4,752 nucleotides of DNA. Origin: a virus (taxonomy: Duplodnaviria; Heunggongvirae; Uroviricota; Caudoviricetes). Under the pieces are notes generated by a model. That model was not told the origin of the DNA. It saw nothing but the letters and a program-made list of their open reading frames with translations, and ran no database searches. Numbering within the stretch: position 1 is the stretch's first letter; the number at the start of each line of letters is the position of its first letter. Below are positions 1,710 through 4,752 of this stretch, one piece after another. A program made the position numbers and the translations under genes. Location: the IMG/VR virus record IMGVR_UViG_2711768003_000013; one strand, 5' to 3'.

Positions 1710-2132
1710 ATGGCGAAACCTTTTACTCCCGAACAGCGGGAAGAACTGAAGACGCGAATTGTGGAACTCGTGCATCAGGACGGTCGGGTCACGATTCGGC
1801 AGTTGTCAGATGAAACAGGTATCAGTCGTGCGTCTGTCGGTCGCTTATGCATAGAACTGGTCGCAAGTGGTGATGTATATAATTCTGGCTACGGCTTATT
1901 CCCGTCTGAACAGGCTCGCAAGGACTGGCAAAGCGCCCGCAAAAAACTCTCGAGAGTAAAGGTGAGGAAACCGGTTGTTGTTGATCCGGACCTTATCTGG
2001 TCATTACCTGACGGAGAAATACGCCGCTACGACAGGCGCCTGAATATAATCTGTCGCGAGTGCCGGAAGAGCGAAGCTATGCAGCGTGTACTGGCTTTCT
2101 ATCAGGGTAATTTTCAGGAGGCGATACTGTGA
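1710..2132 (+). CDS. Small helix-turn-helix (winged-helix-like) protein of unknown function, 140 aa
   Basis: ATG at 1710 is preceded by AGGAGGA (1700-1706); stop TGA 2130-2132. The segment GRVTIRQLSDETGISRASVGRLCIELV looks like an HTH, and there is a C-x2-C (CRECRK) near the C-terminus. The true start could lie inside the N run. Confidence 0.65.
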   Translation: MAKPFTPEQREELKTRIVELVHQDGRVTIRQLSDETGISRASVGRLCIELVASGDVYNSGYGLFPSEQARKDWQSARKKLSRVKVRKPVVVDPDLIWSLPDGEIRRYDRRLNIICRECRKSEAMQRVLAFYQGNFQEAIL

Positions 2133-2546
2133 ATGAAATTAGCTATCAGGCTTCAATTACCGCTGGCATTCGCATCAAAGGAGAGGAGCATGGAAATAAA
2201 ACCAGAAGATGAGTTAAGCAATATCGTTTTATTTCCGGTAAAAGAGGATGACCCTCGTAATCAGGTTAATTTTCTTTATGAGCCATCGGAAAGACCATAT
2301 TGCCATCACGCCTCTGTACGGGTTGACGAAAAAGAGCGTCAGGTCCGCTGTAAAATCTGCGGTGCGGTTGTGGAGCCGTTTGACTGGATGCTCTCTGTGG
2401 CAAAAAGAGAAACCAGACTGGCAGATGATGTAAGGCTATTGCGCCAGGAGGAACAGGAAAGGCGGAGAAATATAGAAAAGCTGATACAGATTGAGCGTAA
2501 CGCGAAAGCGCGGATACGCAGGGCGACAAAATCCAGAACTGAATAA
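2133..2546 (+). CDS. Small Cys/His zinc-ribbon-like protein with basic coiled-coil C-terminus, function unknown
   Basis: ATG at 2133 abuts the upstream stop (TGAATG) with CAGGAGG at 2115-2121. An in-frame ATG at 2190 with a strong AAGGAGAGGAG (2178-2188) is an alternative start giving 118 aa. Motif C-H-H-x13-C-x2-C (YCHHASVRVDEKERQVRCKICG), followed by a charged heptad-like tail (RLLRQEEQERRRNIEKLIQIERNAKARIRR). Confidence 0.6.
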   Translation: MKLAIRLQLPLAFASKERSMEIKPEDELSNIVLFPVKEDDPRNQVNFLYEPSERPYCHHASVRVDEKERQVRCKICGAVVEPFDWMLSVAKRETRLADDVRLLRQEEQERRRNIEKLIQIERNAKARIRRATKSRTE

Positions 2547-2693: not shown

Positions 2694-3380
2694 ATGACCC
2701 CAATAAACATATTTATGACAGTTGCTGATTTCAAACGGCCCAAATTGGAGCTCCCAAACGGGGCAAACAAACTACTACTGCACTCTTGCTGTGCTCCATG
2801 TTCCGGTGAGGTGATGGAGGCGCTTCAGGCCTCGGGAATCGACTACACCATCTTTTTCTACAACCCGAACATTCATCCTCAGAAAGAGTATTTAATTCGT
2901 AAGGATGAGAATATTCGCTTTGCTGAACAACACGGCGTGCCGTTTATTGATGCTGATTACGACACAGACAACTGGTTTGAACGAGCCAAAGGAATGGAAT
3001 GGGAGCCCGAACGAGGGATCCGTTGCACCATGTGTTTTGACATGCGTTTTGAGCGGACAGCGCTGTACGCCGCTGAAAATGGTTTCAGTGTGATCAGCAG
3101 TTCACTGGGCATTTCACGCTGGAAAAATATGCAGCAGGTTAACGACTGTGGGCGGCGAGCCGTCGCGCATTATCCGGGCATGGTGTACTGGGATTATAAC
3201 TGGCGCAAGCAGGGCGGCTCGTCCCGTATGATTGAAATCAGCAAGCGCGAAAAATTCTATCAGCAGGAATATTGTGGCTGTGTGTATTCTCTGCGCGATA
3301 CCAATCTACACCGCAAATCTCAGGGACGCCCTCTTATCAAAATTGGTCAACTCCACTACGGTAAAGAAGAGAAGGAGTGA
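2694..3380 (+). CDS. queH: QueH/DUF208-like protein (putative B12-independent epoxyqueuosine reductase homologue)
   Basis: 228-aa ORF with the motifs I associate with the QueH family: [11 protein letters not shown] near the N-terminus, C-x2-C (CTMCFD) mid-protein, and EYCGCVYS near the C-terminus. No good SD precedes either ATG 2694 or in-frame ATG 2715, so the start is uncertain. Confidence 0.7.
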
Positions 3381-3431: not shown

Positions 3432-3494
3432 GACTGCGGGTGCTTGAGGCTATCTGCTTCAGGCATGAACACCAAAAGGCAGATAGAGAAAAGC

Positions 3495-3559
3495 CCCAGT
3501 TAACATTACGCGTCCGGCAAGACGCTTAACATTAATCTGAGGCCAATTTCATGCTTTGC
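3495..3559 (-). ncRNA. Candidate sok-like antisense RNA (about 60-65 nt) complementary to the mok-like translation initiation region
   Basis: Predicted from the minus-strand promoter. The transcript would contain a composite hairpin (GUUAA-GCGUC-UUGCCG-GACGC-GUAAUG-UUAAC) followed by a U-rich stretch (GGGGCUUUUCUCU). Ends are approximate. Confidence 0.3.
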
Positions 3560-3763
3560 ACATGTAGGTTAGCCTCTTACATGCCGAAAGGCAAGGAGAA
3601 GCAGGCTATGAAGCAGCAAAAGGCGATGTTAATCGCCCTGATCGTCATCTGTTTAACCGTCATAGTGACGGCACTGGTAACGAGGAAAGACCTCTGTGAG
3701 GTACGAATCCGAACCGGCCAGACGGAGGTCGCTGTCTTCGTAGACTACGAATCCAGGAAGTAA
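3551..3763 (+). CDS. mok-like upstream reading frame (in-frame N-terminal extension of hok, 70 codons)
   Basis: ATG at 3551 with GAGG at 3538-3541 (9-nt spacing). The other two frames were checked and contain no ORF overlapping hok, so the only upstream ORF is this in-frame one. Its role as the translational coupler is inferred from the hok/sok paradigm. Confidence 0.35.
   Translation: MLCTCRLASYMPKGKEKQAMKQQKAMLIALIVICLTVIVTALVTRKDLCEVRIRTGQTEVAVFVDYESRK
3566..3594 (-). promoter_or_regulatory. Predicted promoter of a sok-like antisense RNA (minus strand: TTGCCT, 17-nt spacer, TAACCT)
   Basis: On the reverse complement, -35 TTGCCT corresponds to + coordinates 3589-3594 and -10 TAACCT to 3566-3571. 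The predicted start near 3559 points leftwards across the mok-like ATG (3551) and its SD (3538-3541). Confidence 0.35.
3608..3763 (+). CDS. hok: Hok/Gef-family type I toxin (51 aa small membrane peptide), HokD-like
   Basis: Translation MKQQKAMLIALIVICLTVIVTALVTRKDLCEVRIRTGQTEVAVFVDYESRK. As I recall E. coli HokD/RelF, it matches until the last seven residues. AAGGAGA at 3594-3600 lies 7 nt before the ATG; stop TAA 3761-3763. Confidence 0.9.
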   Translation: MKQQKAMLIALIVICLTVIVTALVTRKDLCEVRIRTGQTEVAVFVDYESRK

Positions 3764-4012: not shown

Positions 4013-4300
4013 ATGAAAATCGAAGAATTGCGTGAAATTTTTAGTGAAAATGGCCTCTATGCTGTGCGCGTTGAGAATGGAGCGATTGTCAGCCATTGCC
4101 GCATTAGATGTTTGCAATCTCAACAAAGGAAGAGCGGTGCTGTGTTATTTTATTTTTGTAATGGACTTCTGACGGACGGTTTTATTTTGCGTGAGGACGA
4201 ATTTGTCACATCATTACGGGTTTTGAAAGAGATTGGTTTTAAGGCTGGTTTTCTGCTTTTGCTGAAGAATAAACTCATCTACAATCTTGAGCAGGATTGA
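4013..4300 (+). CDS. Hypothetical small protein (95 aa), no family recognised; AT-rich accessory-type gene
   Basis: ATG at 4013 with GGAAGGA about 9 nt upstream; stop TGA 4298-4300. Visibly more AT-rich than neighbouring genes. The hydrophobic C-terminal stretch KAGFLLLLKNKLIY is noted. No motif that I can assign. Confidence 0.5.
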   Translation: MKIEELREIFSENGLYAVRVENGAIVSHCRIRCLQSQQRKSGAVLFYFCNGLLTDGFILREDEFVTSLRVLKEIGFKAGFLLLLKNKLIYNLEQD

Positions 4301-4338: not shown

Positions 4339-4692
4339 ATGGCACATATACAACTGGTCAAACAAACCTCTTCCGGATTACTTCTCCCGGCGACGCCGGA
4401 GAGTTGCGATTTTCTGCATCAAATCAAAATAGGTGAGTGGATACACGCAGACTTTAAGCGTGTGTGTAACTACGCATTCCACAAGCGTTTTTTCAAACTC
4501 CTGCAACTGGGTTTCGATTACTGGACTCCGGTCGGTGGGGCGATCACGCCTCGCGAACGAAAACTGGTGTCCGGTTTCGTTGATTACCTGTGTGAATCAG
4601 TAGGCCGGGAACATACGCCAGCTCTGAGCGAAGCCGCAGAGCAATTGAGGTGTACTGGCAATAGCGGACACTACCATTTGTTCTTTTTTTAA
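4339..4692 (+). CDS. DUF1367 (YbcN-like) nin-region protein, possibly truncated at a T7 tract
   Basis: ATG at 4339 with GGAGA 8 nt upstream is preferred over the TTG at 4297 used by the ORF track. The N-terminus MAHIQLVKQTSSGLLLPATPE...FHKRFFKLLQLGFDYWTP matches my recollection of YbcN/DUF1367 proteins. The ORF stops at TAA 4690-4692 inside TTTTTTTAA, while the -1 frame is open from 4665 to the window end. Confidence 0.65.
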   Translation: MAHIQLVKQTSSGLLLPATPESCDFLHQIKIGEWIHADFKRVCNYAFHKRFFKLLQLGFDYWTPVGGAITPRERKLVSGFVDYLCESVGREHTPALSEAAEQLRCTGNSGHYHLFFF

Positions 4693-4752
4693 GCAGCCAT
4701 CTGATGATATTTTTCCCTGAAGGCTGCCGGGGAGATATTCCCCAGACGAGAG

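Follow-up and report, generated by a model that had tools for sequence, protein, structure and literature searches.

Lambda Ren has a Rex-related role, the relief of Rex-type exclusion, and the Ead/Ea22-like proteins, a coiled-coil family, bias the lysis-lysogeny decision in lambda and in Shiga toxin (Stx) phages. Here, we compare these and other described systems with two adjacent genes, termed gene 1 (1710-2132) and gene 2 (ending at 2546), that lie in a stretch of 4,752 nucleotides (nt) from IMG/VR virus record IMGVR_UViG_2711768003_000013 (Caudoviricetes), the whole of which is called the window. The window is 99.7-99.8% identical to a Rac-type lambdoid prophage of Escherichia coli/Shigella (NZ_CP065615). 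An initial annotation, made from the sequence alone, had described the pair as a helix-turn-helix (HTH) gene and a zinc-ribbon/coiled-coil gene, translationally coupled, distinct from known lambda genes and possibly forming a regulatory or defence-related module. Its picture of two small co-oriented genes, one HTH and one zinc-ribbon/helical, between replication and nin/Q-type genes is accurate. We consider it likely, nonetheless, that these are a Ren-like gene and an orphan gene, independent of each other, and not a dedicated two-gene module. Both proteins are already present in public databases; the pair arose through lambdoid mosaicism and represents no new kind of system.

Gene 1 and its parts are located as follows.

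1700-1705, + strand: Shine-Dalgarno (SD) sequence AGGAGG of gene 1, read from the sequence, 4 nt before ATG 1710.
1710-2132, + strand: gene 1, DUF977/Ren-like, 140 amino acids (aa) plus stop; Pfam PF06163, phrog_142, and 'DUF977 family protein' by PGAP in NZ_CP065615.
1710-1955, + strand: winged-helix (HTH) domain of gene 1, residues 1-82, from AlphaFold, Foldseek and Pfam.
2043-2105, + strand: C-terminal motif NIICRECRKSEAMQRVLAFYQ of gene 1, with its counterpart NLVFKECRQSAAMKRVLAVYG in lambda Ren, from BLASTP and hhalign.

The gene 1 protein matches Pfam PF06163 (DUF977) over its full length with an E-value of 1.1e-33 (116 bits, cut-off 22), and its residues 1-139 match phrog_142, labelled 'Ren-like exclusion protein', at 2.7e-44. 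The HTH reported at first is borne out by matches to small winged-helix Pfam families (HTH_24, HTH_IclR and MarR-type), by a confident AlphaFold model of a winged helix and by Foldseek, which aligns the model with GntR/IclR/MarR/ArsR-type winged helices (prob 1.0, E ~1e-2). The predicted local distance difference test (pLDDT) score of the model exceeds 90 at residues 10-75 (91-94 at 11-70), and the C-terminal half is poorly defined. Lambda Ren, taken from NC_001416, also matches phrog_142 (1.6e-41). A profile of 16 DUF977 alleles aligns with Ren in hhalign at 94.4% probability (E 8.6e-8, 88 columns); the alignment spans the winged helix and the C-terminal motif and places an insertion of ~40 residues in DUF977. 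Within the motif, BLASTP pairs NIICRECRKSEAMQRVLAFY of gene 1 with NLVFKECRQSAAMKRVLAVY of Ren, 12 of 20 residues being identical (E 3e-7), and this Ren-type motif is nearly invariant among DUF977 alleles whose overall identity is just 54-83%. Gene order matches as well: gene 1 is placed directly after DnaC-like ydaV in NZ_CP065615, and in lambda P is followed by ren. Because the PHROG assignment, the hhalign result, the motif and the synteny agree, gene 1 is, as judged from sequence and gene order, a longer relative of lambda Ren that occupies the ren position. The statement that neither gene is known from lambda thus fails for gene 1 and stands for gene 2, which has no characterised homologue.

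The label 'LygF', given to homologues of gene 1 in some phage records, was pursued and set aside, its literature matches being unrelated uses of the word or genome announcements. A literature search with the protein accessions of both genes and their PHROG identifiers returned no match.

Gene 2 is composed of three conserved elements.

2190-2546, + strand: gene 2, zinc-ribbon and long-helix protein, 118 aa plus stop; phrog_1621, PGAP call.
2205-2237, + strand: N-terminal conserved peptide EDELSNIVLFP of gene 2, predicted to be disordered (pLDDT 54-60).
2301-2360, + strand: zinc ribbon C38-x-H40-x13-C54-x2-C57 of gene 2, from conservation, the model and weak ribbon matches.
2376-2540, + strand: long helix of gene 2, residues 63-117, ending in the invariant basic IEKLIQIERNAKARIRR, from the model and conservation.

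Gene 2 matches phrog_1621 at 5e-56 and, on the basis of such matches, is a member of a catalogued, unstudied phage zinc-ribbon/helix family, whose PHROGs (1621, 8538 and 4865) are all labelled 'unknown function'. It has 148 homologues, and a profile search extends the family to 1615 clusters (50% identity) at E<=1e-3, GC-rich soil sequences included; its range thus reaches from enterobacterial prophages to soil metagenomes and takes in at least 1600 clusters at 50% identity. The soil relatives keep the C-x-H...C-x2-C arrangement, a DPFD-like turn and ERNAKARIR. In the N-terminal peptide, E6, F15 and P16 are invariant and E8, L9 and N11 are at least 90% conserved, and the pattern [DE]..NVV.FP is also seen in distant soil-metagenome relatives. 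The C-H-H-x13-C-x2-C string recognised at first is present, at residues 38-57 of the 118-aa form, but its first histidine is not supported as a ligand: C38, C54 and C57 are invariant and H40 is at least 90% conserved among 71 distant members, whereas the adjacent H39 is not conserved. The model places two beta-hairpin strands at the zinc ribbon, followed by a single helix at residues 63-117 (pLDDT 92-96 at residues 81-110). Between residues 84 and 110 of this helix lie 17 invariant positions; L98, N104 and R108 are at least 90% conserved in the wide family, and the last 30 helix residues are almost invariant among Enterobacterales (LRxEExxRRxNIEKLIQIERNAKARIRR). A heptad pattern was read by eye in the helix, and we take its ERNAKARIRR end to be loosely like the arginine-rich RNA-binding peptides of N proteins.

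Profile and structure searches relate gene 1 to Ren and to winged-helix folds, and find for gene 2 no significant match beyond a generic zinc ribbon. Pfam Zn_Ribbon (TFIIB) falls below threshold (21 bits, cut-off 29), and a Pfam scan of the 71 distant members gives only weak zinc-ribbon or coiled-coil matches, Zn_Ribbon_TF being matched by 7 of the 71 at E<=0.01. Foldseek against the PDB and the viral BFVD yields nothing significant, the best match being the TFIIB N-terminal ribbon (E 0.28); a PDB sequence/profile search gives coiled-coil noise and S27e/TFIIB at E>0.5 only, and neither NCBIfam nor PADLOC contains a match. The most distant GC-rich soil relatives lie on contigs of ~1 kb, and locus searches with an alignment or a single protein found none. 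A degenerate DNA pattern for LKRxERNAKARIR had no match in viral contigs, and a tblastn search with P0176 gave one weak phage match and no plasmid match. Tentatively, and with less weight than we give to the reading as one Ren-like and one orphan gene, the gene 2 family could form an undescribed class of small phage regulators that bind nucleic acid or protein partners. In such a class RNA, DNA or a conserved host hub would be the target of the zinc ribbon and the arginine-rich helix end, and the NVVxFP peptide would recruit a second partner. The modulatory effect would be on recombination, late transcription or host defences. This large, unstudied family shows sharp conservation in its helix, and a function found for it could extend to thousands of 'hypothetical proteins'.

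The region between the two genes contains three further features.

2130-2135, + strand: TGAATG, the stop of gene 1 (TGA 2130-2132) abutting an in-frame ATG (2133-2135).
2133-2160, + strand: spacer specific to the DUF977 context, kept only with DUF977 upstream and unrelated in Ea22 and other contexts.
2161-2189, + strand: leader of the gene 2 cassette, including the SD sequence AAGGAG (2178-2183), identical in all gene 2 contexts.

The open reading frame (ORF) that ends at 2546 gives 137 aa from ATG 2133 or 118 aa from ATG 2190, and both lengths had been proposed correctly, as had the charged helix, which runs for ~55 residues. PGAP annotates the 118-aa form in NZ_CP065615; AAGGAG (2178-2183) sits 6 nt before ATG 2190; and all 35 homologues from other genera or alleles start at the equivalent of M2190 (M-TTETE-ELSNVV-FP...). 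Across contexts, the 120 nt that precede gene 2 become identical only from ~2161, 29 nt before ATG 2190. Since the PGAP call, the SD position, the homologue N-termini and the cassette boundary all favour it, the 118-aa product is the most likely one, and ATG 2190 the most likely start of gene 2. The letters TGAATG, from which translational coupling had been deduced, are present at the junction, but the coupling is probably incidental and ATG 2133 is probably not the main start, a conserved SD and ATG lying 57 nt downstream; TGAGTG stands at this junction in many other DUF977 alleles.

A 137-aa gene 2 protein begun at ATG 2133, with ribosomes reinitiating after termination on gene 1, is unlikely, whether as the sole product or beside the 118-aa form. 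Such a start would use the TGAATG and an AGGAGG 11 nt before 2133; no stop codon interrupts the reading frame between 2133 and 2190, 730 public contigs carry an annotation of the 137-aa form, and TGA+GTG openings are also seen in further cargo genes of the slot after DUF977. PGAP nevertheless chooses 2190, the SD there is better placed, and the 19-residue extension is missing from all homologues outside the DUF977 context; the open frame over 19 codons is not significant, having a probability of ~40% by chance ((61/64)^19).

The independence of the two genes, the first as a Ren relative and the second as an orphan, is seen in a survey of their neighbourhoods. This covered 96 loci (92 obtained via gene 2) from reference genomes and IMG/VR, and 97 copies of gene 2 were classed by their upstream ORF; the locus samples are the best 80 matches to the alleles of the window itself, the fractions are approximate, and any bias is towards co-occurrence. 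Directly upstream of gene 2, DUF977 is found in 49 copies, an ead/Ea22-like gene in 34 and something else in ~14. Downstream of DUF977, where 77 loci could be judged, gene 2 follows in 37 and a frameshifted gene 2 copy in one, the rest carrying at least seven other genes. Co-occurrence across prophages, by which a two-gene module was to be recognised, is therefore inconsistent (49/97 and 37/77), and the range of gene types that follow DUF977 in other prophages confirms the initial description of this region as a hotspot of variable cargo. The DUF977 allele varies between 54 and 100% identity beside a gene 2 that stays 98-100% identical, which indicates a recombination joint between the genes.

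At least seven unrelated cargo genes are found after DUF977 (loci L108-L180); by our own reading of the sequences, they include DUF4406-like and methyltransferase-like genes and small proteins of 84, 70 and ~167 aa. These genes begin at the TGA or a few bases from it, several of them at TGA+GTG, which suggests that the slot is a conserved recombination joint, possibly with genuine stop-start coupling for those cargo genes.

Outside Escherichia/Shigella, no DUF977 gene was found directly upstream of a gene 2 homologue among those homologues whose neighbours were examined. In Klebsiella, Serratia and Yersinia, the homologue stands at the distal end of the nin region, directly after NinG, RusA, YbcO or NinH and often with overlapping stop and start codons, and a Q antiterminator follows downstream, usually past a small ORF (YlcG in Klebsiella). 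A tblastn search of the loci from Kluyvera, Erwinia, Pantoea and Photorhabdus detects no DUF977 beside the gene 2 homologue; as we read their ORFs, NinG-, HNH-, primase-, methyltransferase- and RusA-like genes lie upstream and Q-like antiterminators downstream. The one Salmonella case has a DUF977 gene, but 2.2 kb from the gene 2 homologue and not adjacent to it.

The second most frequent neighbour raises the question of whether gene 2 is tied to Ead/Ea22-like proteins, as their partner or as an interchangeable C-terminal module, its position after DUF977 being a secondary transplant. Upstream ead/Ea22-like genes occur in many lengths; in this context their ORFs read through the 2161-2189 leader, which encodes their last residues (…GIRIKGEE…), and stop 23 nt inside gene 2. 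The 29-nt leader kept in the window therefore corresponds to the coding sequence of an Ead/Ea22-like C-terminal tail. A gene 2 homologue also follows an Ead/Ea22-like gene in Stx phage ArgO145 and in Enterobacter phage Tyrion, the latter homologue being just 33% identical, and in-frame Ea22::gene 2 fusion proteins exist. Two papers report Ea22 as pro-lysogenic (PMC7093339, PMC10834534). Against such a tie, the annotated loci of Klebsiella, Serratia and Yersinia have no Ea22-like neighbour, there is no Ea22-like gene in the window, and the fusions, known from 1-4 contigs each, are rare and may have arisen by accidental recombination. We regard the tie as doubtful.

In the fusions (P0002, P0121 and P0043; locus L002, 4017-5385), the N-terminal/coiled-coil part of ead/Ea22 is joined to the whole gene 2 protein, with ...AELEAR on the Ea22 side of the junction and EIKPEDEL... 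on the other. The Ead/Ea22 Pfam domain PF13935 has no match in gene 2, and both domains occur together only in these rare fusions.

Several points weigh against the conclusion that gene 1 is a Ren relative and gene 2 an independent orphan. Lambda Ren obtains no score against Pfam DUF977, and the link between the two consists of a PHROG profile, a shallow hhalign alignment (Neff 1.5) and a motif of 20 residues. Of the 49 loci with DUF977 and gene 2 adjacent, 48 have a spacer of 57 nt (the other has 72 nt), and an in-frame start abuts the stop of gene 1; together with the constant spacing, this leaves room for some functional linkage or for the 137-aa isoform. The gene 2 model is of moderate overall confidence (pLDDT 75, predicted template modelling score (pTM) 0.41), and the mechanistic part of our account, for DUF977 and for the gene 2 family alike, is what we infer. 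As for defence, one of the roles for which the pair had been named a candidate, no defence-system model in PADLOC-DB was matched: gene 2 has no match, and gene 1 gives only weak HTH-level matches (E>=1.7e-3) to the HTH regions of Csa3/CARF. A functional module of an HTH regulator or sensor and a zinc-ribbon effector, coupled by TGAATG as a defence, anti-defence or exclusion pair, is very improbable: it accounts for adjacency, common orientation, the constant spacing, the in-frame ATG/GTG right after the gene 1 stop, the exclusion-related label of phrog_142 and the presence of gene 2 behind about half of the sampled DUF977 genes, but not for the other half of each sample, the separation of the genes beyond Escherichia/Shigella, the recombination joint between them, the lack of a PADLOC match or a conserved cassette that begins at ~2161 and not at 2133.

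Our confidence in any mechanism is low for both proteins. By analogy with Ren, gene 1 would act as a small early winged-helix protein that binds DNA, replication proteins or an exclusion system, and such binding would protect or tune phage replication during early development. Gene 2 itself is a portable, self-contained cassette of the mosaic and has its own ribosome-binding site. It would have landed in the variable cargo slot behind a ren-like gene, and that landing is presumably the sole reason why the two are co-transcribed here. From its anatomy, the gene 2 protein would be a small and probably oligomeric adaptor, in which the heptad-patterned helix would mediate oligomerisation, the basic helix end and the zinc ribbon would bind either nucleic acid or a conserved partner protein, and the acidic/hydrophobic peptide at the N-terminus would dock a second partner. 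Its recurrent neighbours, RusA/NinG/YbcO, NinH, Q and Ea22-like genes, suggest that gene 2 acts in recombination/DNA processing or early-to-late regulation and not in defence.

The setting of the pair is that of an ordinary mosaic accessory region in a decaying Shigella/E. coli lambdoid prophage. In the annotation of NZ_CP065615, a Cro/CI-type regulator, a YdaT-family protein, a hypothetical protein, ydaV (DnaC/IstB-like ATPase) and the DUF977 family protein precede the hypothetical protein that is gene 2, and QueH, hokD, a hypothetical protein, DUF1367, DUF1364 and DUF1133 follow it. Genes 1 and 2 share one orientation inside the early rightward gene block, and neither a sigma-70 promoter nor a terminator between or after them gave a signal above shuffled sequence. 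The exact gene 1 and gene 2 proteins are each found on ~1000 public contigs, mostly of Shigella sonnei and S. flexneri; the ORFs have hundreds to thousands of homologues each, far beyond chance for both genes. The ends of the window are defined by insertion sequence (IS) elements.

1-105 and 4646-4752: IS600 ends; in the reference prophage locus, IS600 copies have the same two ends at 100% identity.

As both window ends match IS600 ends, the window is a prophage remnant bracketed by IS elements. The right IS600 interrupts the DUF1367 gene (NinB-like by PHROG) at 4645/4646. The left IS600 cuts off the 5' end of an O-like replication gene (105-782), which is also frameshifted and readable only across three frames, comprising the ORFs 80-343 and 513-782 and the intervening stretch; it is a pseudogene in the window, whereas the reference coding sequence (CDS) is intact (261 aa; alignment with 18 gap positions). 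A masked run of N covers 1222-1693, the 3' two-thirds of the DnaC/IstB-like ydaV, so that the window does not show where ydaV ends or how it meets gene 1.

Directly after gene 2 lies a full-length QueH homologue (2694-3380; PF02677, 1.9e-65; phrog_3217, 'unknown function'), an epoxyqueuosine reductase and thus a tRNA-modification enzyme carried as prophage cargo in the accessory slot; just 14 of the sampled loci have QueH behind gene 2. It is succeeded by a hok/sok type I toxin-antitoxin locus (3438-3763), in which the Rfam sok family RF01794 matches 3438-3613 (117 bits) and a HokD-like toxin CDS occupies 3608-3763 (PF01848, 4e-23). An upstream ORF that starts at 3551 and overlaps the HokD-like CDS lies where a mok-like reading frame would be expected. 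Between hokD and DUF1367, an ORF of 95 aa (4013-4300) matches phrog_340 (unknown function) at 6e-20 and has no Pfam match.

Among known systems, the zinc ribbons of TFIIB and ribosomal protein S27e are the best, although weak, matches to gene 2, with which they share a C-x-H...C-x2-C ribbon of two beta-hairpins; the N-terminal peptide and the 55-residue helix of gene 2 have no counterpart in them. The small nin-region proteins NinH, YlcG and NinE resemble gene 2 in size class, and share with its homologues in other genera the placement between the junction nucleases and Q and a tight packing with overlapping stop and start codons, but no sequence relationship was detected. Ead/Ea22-like proteins and gene 2 are frequent neighbours with overlapping frames, rare fusions and a coiled-coil character in both.

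YdaW of the K-12 Rac prophage is, like gene 1, a winged-helix protein encoded after ydaV in a Rac-type prophage. A reading of it as the DUF977 protein of the Rac prophage was rejected, as YdaW belongs to DUF1627 (Pfam, 3.6e-34), has no DUF977 match, aligns with DUF977 in hhalign at 0.9% probability and is unrelated beyond a generic HTH. The reported action of ydaW as a blocker of the retron-Sen2 toxin (bioRxiv 10.1101/2020.06.22.160242) is not transferable to gene 1, because YdaW is of a different family. Two Salmonella loci (L187/L188, 176-1278) carry a DUF1627 (YdaW-type) and a DUF977 gene in tandem after replication or exonuclease genes; since they can stand in tandem, the two families are not simple alternatives for one slot.

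Lambda Ren offers the closest comparison for gene 1. The two differ in length and in context: gene 1 has 44 more residues, the insert that separates the winged helix from the motif being a helix (67-82) and a stretch modelled with low confidence, and its upstream replication gene is DnaC/IstB-like, whereas that of Ren is lambda P. No rexA or rexB gene is visible in the window, and for this reason the Rex-related role of Ren may not apply to gene 1. A very common prophage protein of E. coli/Shigella, DUF977, can nevertheless be linked to Ren by profile, motif and synteny, which gives this 'domain of unknown function' a hypothesis open to testing. Like gene 1, Ren (NP_040633, 96 aa) belongs to PHROG 142, has an N-terminal winged helix and a C-terminal ...ECRxSxAMxRVLAxY motif, and directly follows the last replication gene of the PR operon.

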